Shown: positions 10,735 through 19,047 of the stretch, one piece after another | How the letters are laid out: the number at the start of each line of letters is the position of its first letter | Position numbering within the stretch: the stretch's first letter is position 1 | Source: an uncultured bacterium | GTDB lineage: Bacteria; Bacteroidota; Rhodothermia; Balneolales; DATFMH01 | Direction: 5' to 3' | NCBI GenBank assembly: GCA_963712305.1 | Contig: CAVQHI010000001.1 | Coordinates: 181,383 to 245,382 of the forward strand | Length of the DNA: 64,000 nt | Translations under genes and position numbers: made by a program | The notes under the pieces: model-generated | Databases searched by the model: none | Told to the model about the DNA's origin: nothing | The model's input: the letters and a program-made list of their open reading frames with translations, nothing else

Positions 10735-11916
10735 CTATGATTTAAAATGCTTACCTAATTTAAGATCCTGTCCCTGGTAGTTGCTGTTTATTTCTTCGCC
10801 GTATATAAATTCGGGCGTTTCCGTGTTTGGTTCAAATACCATCCTAAAGAACGTCTGGCCATCCTCGATCAGAAACGGGACATCGTGAGATCGAACTTCG
10901 AGTACAGCACGCGCTCCGCCTGCTGCAACAGAACCACCAAAGCCTGAATCAAAGAAACCGGCATAATGAGTGCGTAGTTCCCCGGAGCCGGTATCGTAAG
11001 GAACCATTTCTGCAGCCAATTGTGCCGGAATTCGGCAGCGTTCTTTAGAAGAAAAGATATAAAAGGCCTCTGGTTCAAGGATAACGGCATTGCCATGATC
11101 CGCATAAATAGGTTCCCAGAAATCCACGACGTTATAATAATTGACACGGTCAAGATCGATCAGGTCACGGTTTTTACGTGCTTTATAGCCAATGATTTTA
11201 TCATTCGTCGAATTCAAACTCACACTCATGAATAGTCCGTCTTGTATCTTCAGATCCTTGTTACTAAGCGGCTTGCGCTGATCATCAAATAAGACCGGAT
11301 CCACCTGGTGAACCTTCGCAATATCCTGATCTGTCAATCGTGCTGATCCGTGTCTGATCCGCAACTGGTTTAGCCGGTGCCCGGTATGAACTCTGATTGA
11401 AAAGGTCTTGGGTACGACTTCAAGATATAGCTTACCCGAATAACCAGGTGTAATTTCTTCGAAACGATGCGAATAGTCTGTTATAACCCGTGTAAAAATA
11501 TCAAGCCGCCCGGTCGAGCTTTTGGGATTCGTCCTGGCGCTGAGCGGTTCGCGAAAATTCAGGCCTTTGCTGCCGGAACTTTGTATCAGCTCCCCATAAT
11601 CAGGAAGATGCACTTCTTCGAGCAACGGAATGATATAGGTGCAATTAGGTTCAAGAACGGCCCCATTAACGATGGAAAACGAATGCTGCGTGAGCCTCCC
11701 CAGCTTCTCTTCCACACTTTCACTTTCCGGCAGAAAGCTGCAACGTACCCTGTAAGCCGTTTCTCCAAGCCGGAGATCGATTGAATTCGGCTGAAGCTGG
11801 TTATCCTCGATGGGATAATTCTCCGGTGCGGTGATCAGGGATTCATCGATCAGCGTTCGTAATGTCTGAACAGGAAGGATGCCTGGTCTTGTGAGATTCA
11901 ATGTCTTAACCGCCAT
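10735..11916 (-). CDS. 2'-deoxycytidine 5'-triphosphate deaminase (long DCD-type, tandem dUTPase-like folds)
   Basis: LQPNSIDLRLGETAYRVRCSF and a second half with ELRTHYAGFFDSGFG. About 390 aa, as in the long DCD family. Confidence 0.75.
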   Translation of the reverse strand: MAVKTLNLTRPGILPVQTLRTLIDESLITAPENYPIEDNQLQPNSIDLRLGETAYRVRCSFLPESESVEEKLGRLTQHSFSIVNGAVLEPNCTYIIPLLEEVHLPDYGELIQSSGSKGLNFREPLSARTNPKSSTGRLDIFTRVITDYSHRFEEITPGYSGKLYLEVVPKTFSIRVHTGHRLNQLRIRHGSARLTDQDIAKVHQVDPVLFDDQRKPLSNKDLKIQDGLFMSVSLNSTNDKIIGYKARKNRDLIDLDRVNYYNVVDFWEPIYADHGNAVILEPEAFYIFSSKERCRIPAQLAAEMVPYDTGSGELRTHYAGFFDSGFGGSVAAGGARAVLEVRSHDVPFLIEDGQTFFRMVFEPNTETPEFIYGEEINSNYQGQDLKLGKHFKS

Positions 11917-12076
11917 ATCTATTTAAAGTGTGGAGTGAATAAAAGTACTTGAAGTCGAGCTCAAACTTAAAAGTTAAAATCAATTAAAGGTAATATGGGT
12001 TTTTTAAATTCTGACTCTCCAAATCAGCTACCCAAACTTTAAGTACTCTTAAGTATTTTAGGCACTCTTAAGTATT

Positions 12077-12547
12077 TCAAATGACACCCGCCAGTTCGTG
12101 AATTCGGTTCCATTCCTTTTCTGTAACCGGAGTTATGGACAAACGGAACCGTTTTAACAGCACCATATTTTTGAGGATTGGATCCTGCTTAATCTGGCCA
12201 CGTGTAACGGATTTGCCGAATTTTTTGTCAAATGTGACATCAACCAGTATCCATCTCGGATCATCTTCCGGACTCGTCGGATCAAAATAGTCGCTGTCCG
12301 GGTTGAACTGGGATTTGTCCGGATGCGGATCAGATGAGACCACCATTGTTCCCACGATTTCAGGTGGTTTTACATTCGAATGATAAAAAAGCACGCCATC
12401 CCCTTTTTTCATCTCATCACGCATGATATTCCGGGCTTCATAATTTCTCACACCATCCCACGATGTTGTCTGATTATCCGCATTCTTCAAATCATCAATG
12501 CTGAAGGCGTACGGCTCGGATTTCATCAGCCAATAATTTCGCTTCAT
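12077..12547 (-). CDS. EVE (PUA-like) domain protein
   Basis: NYWLMKSEPYAFSIDDL...SWDGVRNYEARNIMRDEMKKGDGVLFYHSN, the canonical EVE domain opening. 156 aa, stand-alone. Confidence 0.85.
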   Translation of the reverse strand: MKRNYWLMKSEPYAFSIDDLKNADNQTTSWDGVRNYEARNIMRDEMKKGDGVLFYHSNVKPPEIVGTMVVSSDPHPDKSQFNPDSDYFDPTSPEDDPRWILVDVTFDKKFGKSVTRGQIKQDPILKNMVLLKRFRLSITPVTEKEWNRIHELAGVI

Positions 12548-12766
12548 GTTACCTGTCTTTTATCAATGAATTCTGAACTGTGGGAAAGTAAGGAATTATG
12601 CAGGTTTTTCCGTGGATTGAAATCGATATCTTCACGAAAACGATGACACATCCATTTCCAAATTATCACGTCATTCTCTTGGGGATTTCCCTGGAAAATA
12701 ACGACGATAGAGAGAATGGATCGTTTTACCCGGGGCTACATTTTTTTCGAGAACATCTCTTGTACG

Positions 12767-13609
12767 TTATATTTCCAAATCTTCAACCGGACTTTTCACA
12801 TCTTTTAAAGTCCGGGAACTTACATGGGTATATATCTGCGTGGTAGAAATATGCTTATGCCCGAGCAACTCCTGGATAAACCGGGTATCGGTGCCATTAT
12901 CGAGTAAATGAGTGGCAAAGCTGTGTCGTAATGAATGCGGTGTTACTTTCTTTTTGATACCACACATTTTTCTGTGTTTTCTCATTAGAGCCTGAATGGA
13001 TGCGGCAGAATATTTACCACCGGATTGGCCTTCGAAAAGATATTCTTCAGGCCGATACTCCTTTACATATTCCCTCAGGAGAGACAAAACCTTATCCGAT
13101 AATATGGAGTAACGGTCTTTTTGTCCTTTTCCCTGATCGATACGTATTTGCATTCGGTCTGAATCAATATCTTTGATTTTAAGGTTCAAAATCTCTCCCA
13201 CTCGTAAACCGGCTGAATAGCATACGGTGAAAATAGCTTTGTGTTTGATATTGGTGAATGAATTTAGAAACCGCTGCACCTCTTCAACCGACAGGACAAT
13301 TGGAATACGACTGGGTTTTTTCATTTTGATGTTGAAATCAAAATCCACAGACTCGTTCAACACCTCTGTATATAGGAATTTAACCGAGGCCAATAACTGC
13401 TTCATCATGGAATAGCCGTAACCCAACTCTTTCCTGGCATAGTGAAAAAAATCCTCCAGAACCCGGGGAGTTACTTCATTGCATTGACGAACATTTACAT
13501 AATCCAGAAAAATAGTCAATCCATTGAGATAGGCACGCAATGTACGGTCGCTATAATTTTTCAGCGTAAGCTTATGTTCGTACTTTGATATTAATTCCGA
13601 TTTCCTCAT
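12767..13609 (-). CDS. Tyrosine site-specific recombinase, Xer/IntI-related but short (280 aa), without the IntI-specific insertion
   Basis: Catalytic signature AGLRVGEI...GKGQKDR...HSLRHSFATHLLDNGTDTRFIQELLGHKHISTTQIYTHV, with a C-terminal VKSPVEDL tail resembling the IntI V.SPLD end. Only ~60 aa separate GKGQKDR from HSLRH. Confidence 0.9.
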   Translation of the reverse strand: MRKSELISKYEHKLTLKNYSDRTLRAYLNGLTIFLDYVNVRQCNEVTPRVLEDFFHYARKELGYGYSMMKQLLASVKFLYTEVLNESVDFDFNIKMKKPSRIPIVLSVEEVQRFLNSFTNIKHKAIFTVCYSAGLRVGEILNLKIKDIDSDRMQIRIDQGKGQKDRYSILSDKVLSLLREYVKEYRPEEYLFEGQSGGKYSAASIQALMRKHRKMCGIKKKVTPHSLRHSFATHLLDNGTDTRFIQELLGHKHISTTQIYTHVSSRTLKDVKSPVEDLEI

Positions 13610-13630
13610 TTTATTTTCGTTATTGTAATA

Positions 13631-13701
13631 ATAACATGAACAAAACTTACGTACGAAGCAAGGATAACATGAATTGAGTTCGTGTTATGCTATTGTTGGG
13701 C
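13631..13701 (+). other. attI-like recombinase-proximal site (direct repeats, a 10-5-10 inverted pair, GTTATGC and GTTGGGC boxes)
   Basis: ATAACATGAA at 13631-13640 and 13664-13673. TTCGTGTTAT at 13679-13688 is its inverted partner. GTTGGGC at 13695-13701 is the exact complement of the R'' box at 15815. Confidence 0.45.
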
Positions 13702-13745
13702 GTCATTAAAGAGAACCCGAATAAACAATGAACAGAATTGAATAA

Positions 13746-15440
13746 ATGAAAGCAAACGAAACAAAAGTAGAAGACTTTTTATCTTCAAATAAGACACAAT
13801 TTGTAATTCCAGTTTACCAAAGAAATTATGATTGGTCGACAAGTCAATGCAAACAACTTTTAGACGATATTTTGGAAGTTGGAACAAGTAACAAAATGAA
13901 TGCTCACTTTATTGGTAGTGTTGTTTACGTTCACGATGATGTTTATACATCTTCACGAATCAAAGAACTGACTGTAATTGATGGACAGCAAAGATTGACC
14001 ACGCTGACTTTAATTTATTTGGCTCTTTATCGTTTGGCAATTGAAATTGGAGACAAAGGACTTGAAGCAGAAATTTCTGAAACCTATCTGACAAACAAGT
14101 TTGCACCCGAAGAAGAAAAACTAAAACTACGACCAACTGAAAATAACGACAAAGCCATAAAATACCTTTTGAGAAGTGATAAGGACGAAGAATTTAGCGA
14201 CTTCTCAAAAGTGATAGACAATTTCAATTATTTCAACAGTCGAATAAGTGAAGAAAATTTAGAGTTCGTTCTCAAAGGACTCGCAAAACTAATGTTTGTT
14301 GAAATCTCGCTTGACAGAGAAAAAGACGACCCACAAAGAATTTTTGAGAGTTTAAACTCCACAGGTCTTGAATTATCACAAGCGGACTTAATTAGAAATT
14401 ACATTTTAATGGGTCTTAATCGCAGAGACCAAAATAAAATTTATAACAACTATTGGGAAATCATAGAGAAACTTGCAAAAGATGAAACCCTTAATACAAG
14501 CAAAGTATCGGATTTTATTAGAGATTATTTGACTTTGGTAAATAATAAAATACCGAATAAAAGCAAGGTCTATTTAGAGTTTAAGGCGAAATTTCCAACA
14601 ACTGATTTACAAGAATTAGAAACTAATCTCTCGCCAATAAAATCACTTGTTAAGTTTTACAATAAACTGCTCAACCCCAAAAATGAATTTGACAAAGACA
14701 TAAGATTACAACTTGAATATATAAACCGACTTGAAGTAAATGTAGCTTATCCGTTTTTGATGAAAGTCTATGAAGATTATTCAGAAAACATAATTGACAA
14801 AGCAACATTTATCAAAGTATTGGATTTTATTCAATCTTTTGCTTGGAGACGATTTATAGTTGGCTTACCCACAAACGCTCTCAACAAAATATTTATGACA
14901 CTTTATGAAAAAGTGGATAAAGACGATTATTTGTTGTCATTACAAAAATGGTTGCTTAAAAGACCAGGTTCGCAACGTTTCCCGAAAAACAAGGAAGTTA
15001 TTGAAAGTCTTAAACTAAAAGATGTCTACAACATAAAGTCCAAAAACAGAACTTATCTACTTGAGCGACTTGAAAATTTTGATAATAACGAGCCTGTAAT
15101 AATAGAAGGGAACACAGACATAACAATTGAACACATTTTCCCCCAAAATCCTGACCCAAAATGGAAAGTTGATTTAGGAGCAGATGAATACAATTTGATT
15201 AAAGAAACCTATCTAAACACAATCGGTAATTTGACATTATCAGGCAATAACGGAAAGCTTGGTAATAAACCATTTGCGTTTAAAAGAGATTTAGAGAATG
15301 CAGGATATAAAGACAGTCGTTTATGGCTCAATAAATATTTATCAATTTCCGAAAAGTGGGATAAAGCAGAAATTGAAAGACGTTTTGACCTTCTTGCTGA
15401 ACGATTTTTGAAAATTGGCAAATGCCACAAATCGAATTAG
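13746..15440 (+). CDS. GmrSD-family type IV restriction endonuclease (N-terminal DUF262 ParB-like NTPase, C-terminal DUF1524 HNH-like nuclease)
   Basis: DUF262 motifs FVIPVYQRNYDW and IDGQQRLTTLTL. DUF1524 region has TIEHIFPQNP...GNLTLSGNNGKLGNKPF. Confidence 0.85.
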   Translation: MKANETKVEDFLSSNKTQFVIPVYQRNYDWSTSQCKQLLDDILEVGTSNKMNAHFIGSVVYVHDDVYTSSRIKELTVIDGQQRLTTLTLIYLALYRLAIEIGDKGLEAEISETYLTNKFAPEEEKLKLRPTENNDKAIKYLLRSDKDEEFSDFSKVIDNFNYFNSRISEENLEFVLKGLAKLMFVEISLDREKDDPQRIFESLNSTGLELSQADLIRNYILMGLNRRDQNKIYNNYWEIIEKLAKDETLNTSKVSDFIRDYLTLVNNKIPNKSKVYLEFKAKFPTTDLQELETNLSPIKSLVKFYNKLLNPKNEFDKDIRLQLEYINRLEVNVAYPFLMKVYEDYSENIIDKATFIKVLDFIQSFAWRRFIVGLPTNALNKIFMTLYEKVDKDDYLLSLQKWLLKRPGSQRFPKNKEVIESLKLKDVYNIKSKNRTYLLERLENFDNNEPVIIEGNTDITIEHIFPQNPDPKWKVDLGADEYNLIKETYLNTIGNLTLSGNNGKLGNKPFAFKRDLENAGYKDSRLWLNKYLSISEKWDKAEIERRFDLLAERFLKIGKCHKSN

Positions 15441-15832
15441 AAGAAAGAGATGAAAACAATGAAGTGAACATATTTGAAGCAGAAGACCCGAAATTTAAGA
15501 AATTGGAGTATGCGATTTTCTTCGACCAAAAAATTGAAGTTAATCAAGTTGCAAAATTATATGTAGAAGTTTTTAAGCAACTTTTTGAGTTGCAACCAGA
15601 AACATTTTTCACGACTGACTTGGCAGAAAAGATAATCTTAACAAAGAATCCAAAAGAAGGAAATCCGAGACAAGCAGTTCCAATAAACGACACATATTTC
15701 ATTGAAGGGAATATTGACAACATTGGAAAATTTGAGAAGATAAAACACGCATTGACAATTTTTGATTCAGAAGACGAATTGACAATAAAGTATGCCGGAA
15801 AAAGAATAACGAACGCCCAACAATGTGTATAG
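15422..15832 (+). CDS. Hypothetical 136-aa protein; either a separate gene overlapping the GmrSD gene by 19 nt or its frameshifted C-terminal extension
   Basis: ATG sits in GGCAAATGCC inside the last codons of the upstream ORF. No family recognised. The 3' end overlaps the attC-like R'' box. Confidence 0.5.
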   Translation: MPQIELEERDENNEVNIFEAEDPKFKKLEYAIFFDQKIEVNQVAKLYVEVFKQLFELQPETFFTTDLAEKIILTKNPKEGNPRQAVPINDTYFIEGNIDNIGKFEKIKHALTIFDSEDELTIKYAGKRITNAQQCV

Positions 15833-15946
15833 TGCATGCGGGTTTCATCGATTATCGAGAGTTTGTGGCTCGTAAAAAAGGTGCGGTGTAAGCTGATAGG
15901 AAATCGATTCGTAATCCCGCACTACACCATACACTAACCGTTGGGC
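15815..15946 (+). repeat. attC-like recombination site 1 (132 nt imperfect hairpin)
   Basis: GCCCAAC-AAT-GTGTAT-AGTGCATGCGGG ... CCCGCACTACACC-ATACAC-TAACC-GTTGGGC. This gives a perfect 7-bp R box, an unpaired spacer, a paired L-like box and bulged bases. The central part also pairs (ATCGATT... / ...AATCGAT). Confidence 0.7.
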
Positions 15947-15949
15947 GGC

Positions 15950-16270
15950 ATGCAAAACATCCTGCATATGGATACAGATGATTTATCAATAGAAGCTTAC
16001 GATGGAATTTTAATAGAGGCTGAGAAATTAACTCATGATTTGACTTTGCATTTTGGCCTATTATCTGGCGATTGTAGAAATGAGACTGAATACATTGATA
16101 AAGCAGAGAAACTTACCAGAGAAATAATGCAAGTGGATGATTGGGAGTTAGATGATCTGTTTTGGGGGAATCCACCGGACAAAGAAAATTTGAATTCAAC
16201 ACTTCAAAAAATTATCAGTAATATTGAGAAGATTAAGAAAATTCCGATAGAGAAACGACATTATGACTAA
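15950..16270 (+). CDS. Hypothetical acidic protein (~106 aa), first gene of a two-gene cassette
   Basis: The ORF track starts at TTG 15941, inside the attC-like R' box; ATG 15950 is the more plausible start. No family recognised. The stop overlaps the next start (ATGACTAA). Confidence 0.5.
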   Translation: MQNILHMDTDDLSIEAYDGILIEAEKLTHDLTLHFGLLSGDCRNETEYIDKAEKLTREIMQVDDWELDDLFWGNPPDKENLNSTLQKIISNIEKIKKIPIEKRHYD

Positions 16271-16766
16271 AAAAGAGATTAAGCAAAAAGAGGAGAAACT
16301 TCTTGAAATGACAGGAGCCTTTTGTGCTCAAAAATTAGATGATGATTATTTTCAGTTATGTGAAAAGTTAATTAAAAAGCTCGGGAGAAAAAGGGAAGTT
16401 CCTTTTCAGAGAGGTAAGATGGAGATTTGGGCAGCTGCTGTGGTTTATGCTATAGGGTCGATTAATTTTCTATTTGATAAGTCGTTTGAGCCATATATGA
16501 CAGCGGAACAGATTAGTGAATATTTCGGAACAAAAAACTCAACGGTATCGAATAAAGCCAGACAGATTAAAGATATGTTTGACATGTGGCATTTCAGCCC
16601 TGAATTTTCGACACAGAAAATGACAGAAGATAATCCGTTTAATAATATGGTAATGGTTGACGGATTTATTGTACCTCTGGATACTTTGCCAGCAGATTTA
16701 CAAGAGATGGTTAAGGATGCCAGGTCACGTGGAGAAGATATTGAATTTCAAACAGAACAGAGATAA
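16263..16766 (+). CDS. Hypothetical 167-aa protein with a helix-turn-helix-like segment
   Basis: MTAEQISEYFGTKNSTVSNKARQIKDMF resembles an HTH. Translationally coupled to the upstream ORF (8-nt overlap). Confidence 0.55.
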   Translation: MTKKEIKQKEEKLLEMTGAFCAQKLDDDYFQLCEKLIKKLGRKREVPFQRGKMEIWAAAVVYAIGSINFLFDKSFEPYMTAEQISEYFGTKNSTVSNKARQIKDMFDMWHFSPEFSTQKMTEDNPFNNMVMVDGFIVPLDTLPADLQEMVKDARSRGEDIEFQTEQR

Positions 16767-16773
16767 TGCCAGC

Positions 16774-16882
16774 TGCCGACACGCGGTACAGTTAATAAGG
16801 GTTTCAGTGGTTTGCGAAGCAAAGCAATCCGCTTCAACTTTTCTTGTACCTTAACAGGTAAAAAGCCCGCCATCCGTTGTGC
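16774..16882 (+). repeat. attC-like site 2 (109 nt, degenerate R'' box)
   Basis: Begins 8 nt after the stop codon. The arm ACGCGG-TACAGTTAATAAGG pairs imperfectly with CCTTAACAGGTA...CCCGCCAT. It ends in GTTGTGC at 16876-16882. R'' reads TGCCGAC, a poor match to RYYYAAC. Confidence 0.4.
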
Positions 16883-16914
16883 CTAATAAAATGAACTATT
16901 AAATATTTCCATAT

Positions 16915-17496
16915 ATGAGAAAAGTATTGTTTCTGTTTACAGCAATTTTGATTTTCAATAGTTGTAGCACTTCATCAACAACTAACAAACCAACTTTAAA
17001 TGATTATAAAATTGGAGAAAAGTGGGTTTGGAATTGGAAACGTACAGTCGATGGAGAGGTTCGTGCGGAAGGAGAAGATATACAGGAGGTGGTAGACTAT
17101 AATGGAGTTTTAGGGCTTTGGAATGGTGTTGATACCGTCCAGATTTCGACTATTTTAGACCAAAAGCAAACCAGCACACCCTTTCGTGATTGGCCCTTGT
17201 ATGTAGGGAAAAAATGGAAATATGAATCAGAATGGGAAAATAATGAAGGTACGAAAGGGAAAACCAGTCAGGACGTTGAAATCGTTTCATTTGAAGAACT
17301 AAATGTTGTAGCCGGGAAATTTCTGGCTTACAAAATAGAATACAAGGGAATTGTAACAAATTCCAGAGGTTATAAAGGAGAGATGTCTGATACGTGGTGG
17401 TATTCCCCTGAATTAAAAACATATATCAAGCATGTAAATAATGATGGCTATGGTCTTTATACAAATGAACTAACTCATTATTCGAAAGCGCGGTAG
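16915..17496 (+). CDS. Hypothetical lipoprotein (193 aa), single-gene cassette
   Basis: Signal plus lipobox-like LIFNSCSTSS. No family recognised. Confidence 0.6.
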   Translation: MRKVLFLFTAILIFNSCSTSSTTNKPTLNDYKIGEKWVWNWKRTVDGEVRAEGEDIQEVVDYNGVLGLWNGVDTVQISTILDQKQTSTPFRDWPLYVGKKWKYESEWENNEGTKGKTSQDVEIVSFEELNVVAGKFLAYKIEYKGIVTNSRGYKGEMSDTWWYSPELKTYIKHVNNDGYGLYTNELTHYSKAR

Positions 17497-17505
17497 AAAA
17501 CCTAT

Positions 17506-17635
17506 GCACAACTATATAGAAAAATAATAGCCATGGTAGAGATAAGTTCATGGGTTTGAGCCCGCTTTAACTTTCTCGTAACTATATAGAAAATTGCCAC
17601 ATAGCCGGCTACTATTCTTATACTCAACGTTGCGC
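17506..17635 (+). repeat. attC-like recombination site 3 (130 nt imperfect hairpin)
   Basis: GCACAAC-TATATAGAAAAATAATAGCC ... GGCTACTATTCTTATACTCAAC-GTTGCGC. R boxes are complementary at 6/7 positions, and the arms pair with bulges. Starts 10 nt after the stop codon. Confidence 0.65.
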
Positions 17636-17983
17636 AACTGCATCCAATTAGCTTTTTGCTTGCTGATATTTCCTCTTTGGTAATTTCACTTTTAAGTCTG
17701 GGTTTGTCATTTGCGTAATCATACAACCAGGATACTTCCATAGAGTCGTACATTTTACAAATTCTCATTTATCCTGCCACATTATTAATTTTTCGTCTTC
17801 AATTCCGTAGGTTTACATACCTCCAATAATTATAACCGCTATTATAATAAGTGGTTATACCCAACTTTTTTTGTTTCAAGACGATTACGCATAAATTTTA
17901 TTTTTGTAACATAGTTTAAAATCAAAAATTAAGTGTGACATTTACTCAGATAGAAAGTGCTAATTTGAACTAAATAGGTACAA

Positions 17984-18430
17984 ATGAAAACAAACGAAGA
18001 AATTTTTATAATATTAATAGAAGAAGGCTTCAGTAAAGGTGATGTTTCTGTTTTTGACACCTATTCTTCGCCCGCGTTTGTTGAACATCAATATGGATTC
18101 TTCCCTCCCAATGTAGAAGGCGTTAAAAAGGCAATTAATAATCTACACTACGCTTTTCCAGATTTTTCGCTGACCATAGACGACATGATAACGGGCGGCT
18201 CCAAAGTTTGGGGAAGGATGACAGGACGAGGGACTCACAAAAACAAATTTGGACCGATGTTTCCAACCGGTAAAAAATTTGAAATTGCCGTAATCGATAT
18301 TATGCGATTTGAAACCGGGAAACTAATTGAACACTGGGGTGTCCCAGATAAATTGGCTCTCATGGAACAACTTGGGATGAAAGCTCCGCCAAAACTTATT
18401 ATGAAAATTATGAGCTTGCTTAACAGGTGA
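17984..18430 (+). CDS. SnoaL-like ester cyclase family protein
   Basis: FVEHQ...NLHYAFPDFSLTIDDMITGGSKVWGRMTGRGTH...FEIAVIDIMRFETGKLIEHWGVPD is typical of predicted ester cyclases (NTF2-like fold). Confidence 0.7.
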   Translation: MKTNEEIFIILIEEGFSKGDVSVFDTYSSPAFVEHQYGFFPPNVEGVKKAINNLHYAFPDFSLTIDDMITGGSKVWGRMTGRGTHKNKFGPMFPTGKKFEIAVIDIMRFETGKLIEHWGVPDKLALMEQLGMKAPPKLIMKIMSLLNR

Positions 18431-18511: not shown

Positions 18512-18994
18512 ATGAGAACGAAAAATGGGTTTAAAGTATATGCAGGTGAAGCCAGGTTTGGAAAGCACTACAAGATGAAAGGTGTTACCCACAACATACT
18601 GGACATCAAAATATCCGGAAATGATACTGAAAAAGATTTAGCTGTATTTGAGCAAACCGGACTCAGTCCTAACGGTGGTCCACCTTTGCATATGCATCCA
18701 TTTCAGGATGAATGGTTCTATGTTATAGATGGTGAGTACTTGTTTCAGGTTGGTGAGGAGAAATTTCAAATGAAATCAGGTGACACGGTTTTTCTTCCGA
18801 GGAATGTTCAGCACGCTTTTATTCAATTGACAGAAAAGGGAAAGATGATAGTTTCTTATTTACCAGCAGGAAAGATGGAAGCATTTTTTCAAGTGACTGA
18901 TCAATGGACTTCACCTCCATCGAAAGAAGAAATTGAAAAAGTTTTCGATGACCACGATATGAGAGTTGTTGGGGCACCATTGAAAACAGACTAA
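18512..18994 (+). CDS. Cupin domain protein
   Basis: GGPPLHMHPFQDEWFYVIDGEYLFQVGEEKFQMKSGDTVFLPRNVQHAF (cupin motifs 1 and 2). Confidence 0.75.
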   Translation: MRTKNGFKVYAGEARFGKHYKMKGVTHNILDIKISGNDTEKDLAVFEQTGLSPNGGPPLHMHPFQDEWFYVIDGEYLFQVGEEKFQMKSGDTVFLPRNVQHAFIQLTEKGKMIVSYLPAGKMEAFFQVTDQWTSPPSKEEIEKVFDDHDMRVVGAPLKTD

Positions 18995-19019: not shown

Positions 19020-19047
19020 TCACAACACATGGTATAGTGCATACATG
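19020..19047 (+). repeat. Orphan attC-like top-arm half-site
   Basis: TCACAAC-ACATGGTATAGTGCATACATG shares CAAC plus an 11-nt run GTATAGTGCAT with the top arm of site 1. No complementary bottom arm or GTTRRRY box follows. Confidence 0.35.

Follow-up and report, generated by a model that had tools for sequence, protein, structure and literature searches.

A probable integron-type cassette platform beside a tyrosine recombinase without the IntI additional domain in an uncultured member of the Balneolales

The DNA analysed here is a stretch of 64,000 nucleotides (the window) from an uncultured bacterium of the order Balneolales, taken from contig CAVQHI010000001.1 of GenBank assembly GCA_963712305.1 (positions 181,383 to 245,382 of the forward strand). 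Between positions 12767 and 17635 the window carries a gene for a tyrosine recombinase, an attI region and three gene cassettes, two of which end in functional-looking attC hairpins and the third in an attC that looks decayed. The recombinase gene is divergent from five co-oriented open reading frames (ORFs), which are spread over the three cassettes. R'' and R' denote the outer boxes of an attC and R1 the covariance model described below; the features are as follows.

12767..13609, minus strand: tyrosine recombinase of 280 amino acids (aa), putative integron integrase (ORF; Pfam PF00589 and PF13495)
13610..13701, plus strand: attI region, conserved in 15 Balneolaceae loci, with its crossover box GTTGGGC at 13695-13701
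13696..15940, plus strand: cassette 1, 2245 nt, 5' start TTGGGC, with a GmrSD-type defence gene (13746-15440) and a 136-aa ORF (15422-15832)
15815..15946, plus strand: attC1, 132 nt, from R'' GCCCAAC to R' GTTGGGC (covariance model R1 and fold)
15941..16876, plus strand: cassette 2, 5' start TTGGGC, with an ORF of about 106-109 aa (15941/15950-16270) and a DUF6398 protein (16263-16766)
16774..16882, plus strand: attC2 remnant, with degenerate R'' TGCCGAC and intact R' GTTGTGC (16876); no match to R1 at E<=10
16877..17629, plus strand: cassette 3, 5' start TTGTGC, with a 193-aa predicted lipoprotein (16915-17496)
17506..17635, plus strand: attC3, 130 nt, from R'' GCACAAC to R' GTTGCGC (covariance model R1)

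Seven boxes of 7 nt mark the ends of these units: GTTGGGC at 13695-13701, GCCCAAC at 15815-15821, GTTGGGC at 15940-15946, TGCCGAC at 16774-16780, GTTGTGC at 16876-16882, GCACAAC at 17506-17512 and GTTGCGC at 17629-17635. All seven had been picked out in a preliminary description of this DNA, which placed each of them correctly or within 1 nt. That description held that cassettes complement their own R'' at their 5' ends, and in cassettes 1 and 3 the 5' start is indeed the exact complement of the cassette's own R''. Cassette 2 had been named as the exception, and between its 5' start and its own R'' there are three mismatches, with AAC changed to GAC. To call attC2 fossilised, as was done, is fair: besides giving no match to R1, it folds without closing its R box (z +0.8), and reconstitution of the circular form does not rescue it. 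Despite this decay, the perfect R'' of cassette 3 confirms the R' junction at 16876. Cassettes 2 and 3 may by now leave the array only as a pair. The crossover was rightly placed inside GTT, yet the exact split proposed, between G and TT, is finer than the sequences allow; the crossover can be located no more finely than somewhere in G-T-T because those three bases never vary. It had also been suggested that the boundaries would be in doubt if the same 7-mers proved equally frequent elsewhere. Each occurs one to six times per strand in the window, which is about the chance frequency, and for that reason the signal lies in the position of the boxes and not in their rarity; the frequency itself is uninformative.

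The cassette-end pattern was followed in related arrays, the core of the comparison being 15 fetched Balneolaceae loci (L001-L015), with loci taken at a length of 20 kb. Sites were collected with a hairpin scan that is blind to the four variable bases. Outside arrays a low threshold in this heuristic let through many false positives; the cutoff was therefore set at 13-14, and the covariance model was applied later. In 26 of 33 strong sites R'' is perfect to the upstream junction and in only one to its own downstream box, the exceptions going back to attCs that the scan missed or to hairpins outside arrays. Between consecutive attCs found with the covariance model the match is perfect cassette-wise in 25 of 44 cases and junction-wise in 3 of 44, over a background of 4.6%. 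Perfect complements can be chained from the attI junction through six steps in L007 and five in L004, and the same rule runs through distant arrays (12/13 in L070, 3/4 in L055 and 3/3 in L072).

Reconstructing the circular forms in silico, a check put forward in the preliminary description, raises pairing of the R helix in the bottom strands of 20 attCs outside the window from 72.9% as they stand in the array to 98.6% when reconstituted, with three to four Watson-Crick pair types at each variable position and 78 of 80 variable cells paired. The concern that boundaries might fit equally well at shifted positions is also answered, as sliding the R-box partners by 1-3 columns cuts pairing to 29-53%. 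The preference for cassette-wise over junction-wise matching is decisive across the family and consistent within the window. Such complementarity is what excision and insertion of circular cassettes through a crossover at the invariant GTT would predict, and its presence in about 25 related arrays supports that process.

The recombinase itself is of Xer-like size and matches PF00589 at 5.7e-44. Its best NCBIfam match is NF040815 (recomb_XerA_Arch, 'tyrosine recombinase/integron integrase' in NCBI naming), which it passes with 230.7 against a cutoff of 220. With the integron integrase model TIGR02249 it scores 199, below the cutoff of 265 and in two stretches, a score as high as those from XerC/D models notwithstanding the missing domain. 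That domain is the additional (I2) domain of IntI, which the recombinase lacks: alignment with IntI1 leaves a gap of 44 columns where IntI1 carries the additional domain and its I2 helix, alignment with VchIntIA leaves residues 182-246 of that structure unmatched, and the AlphaFold2 model has no helix between H172-185 and H202-215. In VchIntIA the I2 helix reads extrahelical attC bases. The catalytic set is intact, with residues R136, K161, H225, R228, H251 and Y260 conserved relative to IntI1, and a C-terminal S-P-[LV]-[DE] motif is common to the recombinase, IntI1 and VchIntIA. VchIntIA and XerA are tied as the closest solved folds to the AlphaFold model, and by model scores and fold matches the protein lies about equally far from IntI and XerA. 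An exact-protein lookup returned no record. The 64-kb window holds no second tyrosine recombinase, and no IntI-like gene was found in the window or in the loci examined. The I2 domain is held to define IntI and to be necessary for integron recombination (PMC9668308; PMC7790495).

Covariance model R1 was built from the sites of other genomes only, and the window was searched with filters off. In the 64 kb it gives exactly two significant matches, attC1 (62.4 bits, E 1.2e-12) and attC3 (34.6 bits, E 4.2e-6), both full length and on the bottom strand. The bottom strand of attC1 folds at -24.9 kcal/mol (z -3.7), and attC3 in its reconstituted form folds 1.8 kcal/mol better than in its array form; the folds of attC2 and attC3 are not significantly better than those of shuffled sequence. 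A strict search of the window for RYYYAAC/GTTRRRY pairs returned attC1 only, attC3 being missed because its boxes (GCACAAC and GTTGCGC) deviate from RYYY/RRRY. The prefix GCCAGC of attC2 is common to the attCs of the family. On the loci R1 finds 80 attCs beside homologous recombinases, every one on the strand that matches the local array orientation.

Family attCs follow the classical plan, in which an asymmetric internal loop separates the R box (7 bp) from the L stem; their modal length is 129-134 nt. AAC and GTT are invariant in 79-80 of the 80 sites. The L helix is 97.4% paired over these sites, and of its 13 pairs 12 show compensatory change. At one L-box pair 79/80 sites have G.U, and a second is G.U or A.U. 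In the alignment of bottom-strand attCs an invariant G after AAC (G8) lies opposite an invariant T before GTT. The G.T positions of the bottom strand are A.C mismatches on the top strand, and the bottom strand folds better than the top. Conserved bulged (extrahelical) bases are absent from the 13-bp L helix, in the set of 20 sites as in that of 80, and bulges occur in single sites, attC1 among them.

These structures bear on whether a folded strand takes part at all. Recombination could instead proceed on duplex DNA in the manner of Xer or lambda, with both strands exchanged and the inverted repeats of attC serving as spaced binding sites. The Xer architecture of the recombinase, its passing of the XerA model cutoff and its lack of I2, the element thought to confer single-strand recombination (PMC7790495), would all suit such a process, and junction patterns alone are unable to tell single-strand from double-strand exchange. 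However, R'' and R', as well as L'' and L', co-vary as Watson-Crick pairs (97-99% paired) at distances of 60-200 nt, as would be expected of a hairpin and not of two independent duplex binding sites. Palindromic symmetry is moreover broken in a strand-specific manner at the mirrored position where a fixed G faces T (79/80 sites). The better folding of the bottom strand and the gene for a single-strand DNA-binding protein (ssb) found between integrase and attI in two relatives also argue against duplex exchange, which we consider unlikely.

Two further observations concern the attCs. Their centre does not vary freely: AGTnnnGTGCT-type motifs and others like TTCGAAATC recur (alignment columns about 30-100; for example L007 258-389), and the length of 129-134 nt is kept from Balneolales to Chryseolinea. 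The recurrent motifs and the constant length hint at extra binding sites. Some arrays also contain an ORF-less mini-cassette of about 125 nt that starts with TTGAAG (TTATAG in L004), its copies forming interleaved repeats among the ORF cassettes. Copies lie at 10932-11057, 11967-12092 and 13210-13335 of reverse-complemented L003, at 10933-11057, 13058-13182 and 20583-20707 of L007, and at 11919-12044 of L004; analogous 133-nt repeats starting with TTGCAA are found in L060. The attC stem of the mini-cassette enters the R box without an unpaired spacer, and the mini-cassette has no Rfam match. It may act as a promoter or a small RNA, or be a selfish cassette made of an attC only.

In the attI region direct copies of ATAACATGAA lie at 13631-13640 and 13664-13673 and an inverted copy, TTCGTGTTAT, at 13679-13688. 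The repeats can be read as an 11-7-11 palindrome, after which come TATT and then GTTGGGC. Across Balneolaceae the recombinase orthologues are 68-83% identical, of the same length and single-copy, and integrase and attI form a 940-bp unit (12767-13701) conserved in 15 genomes. In every one of the 15 loci nucleotide similarity to the window is limited to 12767 through about 13698-13708, so that the stop codon of the recombinase and the first box's GTT are the two limits of homology. Aligned attIs have repeats that co-vary between lineages, and they lose similarity right after TGTT; in more distant relatives attI likewise consists of a palindrome, 4-6 nt and then GTT. Directly 5' of the G there is a T in attI and a C in every attC; this base remains with the upstream partner, while the bases 3' of GTT move with the downstream cassette.

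The 20-mer of the window's attI is found again in L015 and in two metagenome contigs (L082 and L084), and with the window included the first cassette behind this attI is a different one in each of the four sequences. Between L005 and L014 a single cassette is the sole difference; the left flank and intI-attI unit before it and the chromosome downstream of it are common to both. In three genome groups with a common left flank the cassettes are unrelated. Because of these three comparisons the platform is seen to be fixed and the cassettes to turn over exactly at the GTT boxes; as judged from the genomes compared, the unit bounded by GTT boxes is the one that is exchanged. A third metagenome match to the attI 20-mer, in L083, was an unrelated chance match and was set aside.

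A simpler reading would make the hairpins terminators or repetitive extragenic palindromic (REP)-like repeats, the recombinase a housekeeping Xer protein beside dif, and the 7-mers coincidental. The near-chance frequency of the 7-mers in the window, the weak folds of attC2 and attC3 relative to shuffled sequence and a single-copy, well-conserved recombinase would agree with it. The chains of perfect complements are nevertheless far above background, sliding the partners collapses the signal, and covariance-model matches are found only beside the recombinase, so that the earlier judgement that a terminator-only reading is hard to hold stands. Flanks of the locus differ among genomes, and cassettes turn over at a fixed GTT. 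A dif or terminus location was rejected on the absence of synteny and on GC skew, which is negative on both sides with no switch at the locus. We find this reading as a whole hardly credible.

Several observations concern the platform in single genomes. The intI-attI unit of L015 is 94% identical in nucleotides to that of the window, and both its flanks are unrelated to anything in the 64 kb; the intI-attI platform itself may move between genomes, or the L015 bin may be chimeric. In reverse-complemented L011, positions 14611-15177 hold, within the array, a degraded second copy of the recombinase (fragments of residues 45-169). A second attI accompanies it, with GTTGGCA at 15171, and the R'' of the next attC (TGCCAAC) matches this second attI. 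This looks like a tandem or decayed platform. The sole attC of L001, from the cultured Gracilimonas amylolytica (12572-12702 of the reverse complement), has a perfect cassette-wise R'', TGCCAAC against GTTGGCA at attI, and an R' in which GTT is mutated to GCT, making it another fossilised terminal site.

Positions 12767-17635 are very probably a chromosomal integron-type platform of a Balneolaceae-like genome, into which cassettes have been inserted as circles beside an adjacent recombinase without I2. The preliminary description had appealed to integron cassette biology, and family-wide covariation bears this out; its assumption of a classical integron needs refining, as the integrase is without the IntI-defining domain. 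Here the adjacent 280-aa recombinase would be the catalyst, and attC, by analogy with classical integrons, would react as a folded bottom strand. Each cassette would enter as a circle, whose attC would close by pairing of R'' (xxxxAAC) with G and the six bases (TTxxxx) at the cassette's own 5' end. Once the cassette is linear in the array, the box downstream of an R'' would belong to the next cassette; closure in circular form before insertion would thus be the reason why the 5' end of a cassette complements its own R''. The near-invariant G.T wobbles would mark the reactive bottom strand in place of the bulged bases that the I2 helix reads. We infer that the polarity of attC is written in wobbles and not in extrahelical bases, which is coherent with the missing I2 helix.

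A number of points weigh against this interpretation. In the window alone the cassette-wise argument is weak and hangs on a single base. Cassette 1 is uninformative, with GTTGGGC at both of its ends; cassette 2, one of only three, fails the cassette-wise test; and in cassette 3 the cassette-wise and junction-wise matches differ by one base only, which on the bottom strand decides between an A-T pair and a G.T wobble (-13.7 vs -11.9 kcal/mol). Excision and insertion of cassettes are here read from comparative turnover. Instead of forming a wobble pair, the invariant G and T could serve as sequence contacts. Deletion of the domain abolishes the activity of IntI1 (Messier and Roy 2001, as relayed in PMC7790495), and Cury et al. 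dismissed neighbouring recombinases of this kind as not IntI (PMC4889954). Lastly, the comparison covered 20-kb loci, so a canonical IntI could sit elsewhere in the genomes.

The last three points lend themselves to a different arrangement, in which the array would be like a cluster of attC sites lacking an integrase (CALIN), served in trans by a canonical I2-containing IntI, and the adjacent recombinase would resolve or move the platform. The rule of the field that I2 is required (PMC7790495; PMC9668308) favours it, and the 11-7-11 palindrome of attI looks like an ordinary duplex core site with the cassette junction 4-6 bp outside. It is opposed by the finding that recombinase and attI form one conserved unit in 15 genomes, with homology ending at the cassette junction, and that attI repeats co-vary with the recombinase lineage. 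The association of recombinase and array is kept in both gene orientations and across orders, no IntI-like gene lies in the window or the loci examined, and the degraded second recombinase copy of L011 travels with a second attI. Service in trans is in our view quite improbable, and the adjacent recombinase is retained as the candidate catalyst of an integron-type platform.

Homologues of the recombinase with 43-50% identity are accompanied by arrays in Cytophagales, Flavobacteriales and Bacteroidales. Array carriers include Chryseolinea, Arundinibacter, Runella, Algoriphagus, Belliella, Polaribacter, Paludibacter and a metagenome-assembled genome of Bacteroidia. Most of these distant homologues (loci including L070, L055, L030, L056, L018, L025, L027, L051, L071 and L072) are longer, at 450-560 aa, and carry a conserved extension at the N-terminus, starting for example with MIKATKIIHKEEQRIKVDFPYN, that matches no Pfam family. 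In these distant loci the array is downstream of the recombinase and on the same strand, a layout opposite to that of the window. The ssb gene mentioned above (PF00436, E 5e-31) lies between integrase and attI at 10856-11203 in L055 and at about 10830-11190 in L018; its presence in these two Cytophagales relatives is suggestive in a system that would work on folded single strands. IntegronFinder 2.0 reported essentially one complete integron in Bacteroidetes, that of Salinibacter (PMC9024848). We give an even chance to the broader proposal of a widespread Bacteroidota lineage (Balneolales, Cytophagales, Flavobacteriales and Bacteroidales) that never had or has lost I2 and captures cassettes through folded bottom-strand attCs marked by wobbles.

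Among known systems the nearest are sedentary chromosomal integrons, such as the Vibrio cholerae superintegron with IntIA and its V. cholerae repeat (VCR) attCs, or those of Treponema type with a co-oriented intI. As in these, the recombinase is beside attI, and the cassettes are co-oriented, mostly promoterless and each ended by an imperfect hairpin. The attCs share the order R''-spacer-L''...L'-spacer-R', the invariant AAC and GTT, a crossover in GTT and an R'' that matches the cassette's own 5' end; they are about 130 nt long and homogeneous within a lineage. A fixed chromosomal position with variable cassettes, defence cargo and the existence of both divergent and co-directional intI layouts are further likenesses. 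Unlike sedentary integrons, the locus described here has an integrase without the I2-helix additional domain, an L box with near-invariant G.T wobbles and no conserved extrahelical bases, L and R boxes that are not inverted copies of each other, an attI whose crossover is closely preceded by an 11-7-11 palindrome, and a host in the Bacteroidota (Balneolales). Standard tools would probably label the locus a CALIN, since it has attC-like sites and no protein matching intI_Cterm. In contrast to a CALIN, the array is not orphaned, since a recombinase and a conserved attI are tied to it both physically and in evolution.

The phage CTX-phi and the integrative mobile elements exploiting Xer (IMEX) use an I2-less XerCD, which acts at dif on a folded single-stranded hairpin that mimics the core site. 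One strand is exchanged, replication resolves the product, and tandem insertions can form at one site. With their Xer-type recombinase lacking I2 they are the best precedent for I2 not being chemically required in hairpin recombination. However, they are phages and islands that hijack the housekeeping XerCD and the dif site of the terminus, whereas a dedicated recombinase and attI capture small ORF cassettes here. A scenario for single-stranded integration by XerCD at dif is discussed in PMC7790495. Archaeal XerA and bacterial XerC and XerD resemble the recombinase in length, domain layout and catalytic residues, yet they differ in acting at dif and not in the context of a cassette array, and the S-P-[LV]-[DE] motif links the recombinase instead to IntI1 and VchIntIA. 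The pdif or Xer-module cassettes of Acinetobacter type are bounded by 28-bp XerC-6-XerD sites of alternating orientation, unlike the hairpin boundaries of 60-200 nt in one orientation seen here.

Taken by itself the cassette-end pattern is textbook integron behaviour, and its value is that it would certify the locus as a working cassette system. In open-access papers and bioRxiv we found no account of integrons in Balneolaceae or Bacteroidota that have an integrase without I2, and the locus is in this respect an integron variant not found described there. The integron field regards I2 as the innovation that opened up single-stranded recombination (PMC7790495; PMC9668308), and detection tools discard recombinases without the domain (PMC4889954). 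If our interpretation is correct, I2 would be no prerequisite for integron-type single-strand recombination, and the lineage would represent one of two things: the long-sought stage between Xer and IntI that preceded I2, or an answer to the same problem reached independently. A natural integrase without I2 would offer a testable system for the contribution of I2 and for alternative ways of encoding strand choice. Many Bacteroidota CALINs would become complete integrons in a phylum thought to be almost free of them, and the known reservoir of mobile cassettes, here including a GmrSD defence gene, would grow.

The defence gene of cassette 1 matches Pfam GmrSD_N and GmrSD_C and, in PADLOC, Orf5 at 2e-144 as well as HEC-06 and mREase_IV. 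Such GmrSD or type IV restriction-like cargo is in line with a recent view in which chromosomal integrons store anti-phage genes. The 136-aa ORF of the same cassette overlaps the GmrSD gene, and its stop codon falls within attC1. In a Pfam search the 193-aa lipoprotein of cassette 3 had no family match. GC content is 0.33-0.37 in the cassette region (0.33 in cassette 1) and 0.44 in the flanks.

Beyond attC3 there are genes for a SnoaL protein (17984-18430) and a cupin (18512-18994), with a GC content of 0.39 that continues to about 19.8 kb. One tentative feature, read from the sequence 3' of the cupin gene, is added here:

19020..19044, plus strand: half attC (R''-spacer-L''), TCACAAC ACAT GGTATAGTGCATAC

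Its sequence is similar to the 5' arm of attC1 and to that of the attC in L014; a matching 3' arm is absent, and the covariance model gives no match. Together with the SnoaL and cupin genes this half attC may be a relic of further, decayed cassettes past attC3.

Rfam at gathering thresholds gave no family in the window or in four related loci, tRNAs excepted. A minus-strand ORF of 88 aa (17502-17768), with no family match, overlaps attC3. The last R' box (17629-17638 of the window) sits within a perfect palindrome, GTTGCGCAAC.

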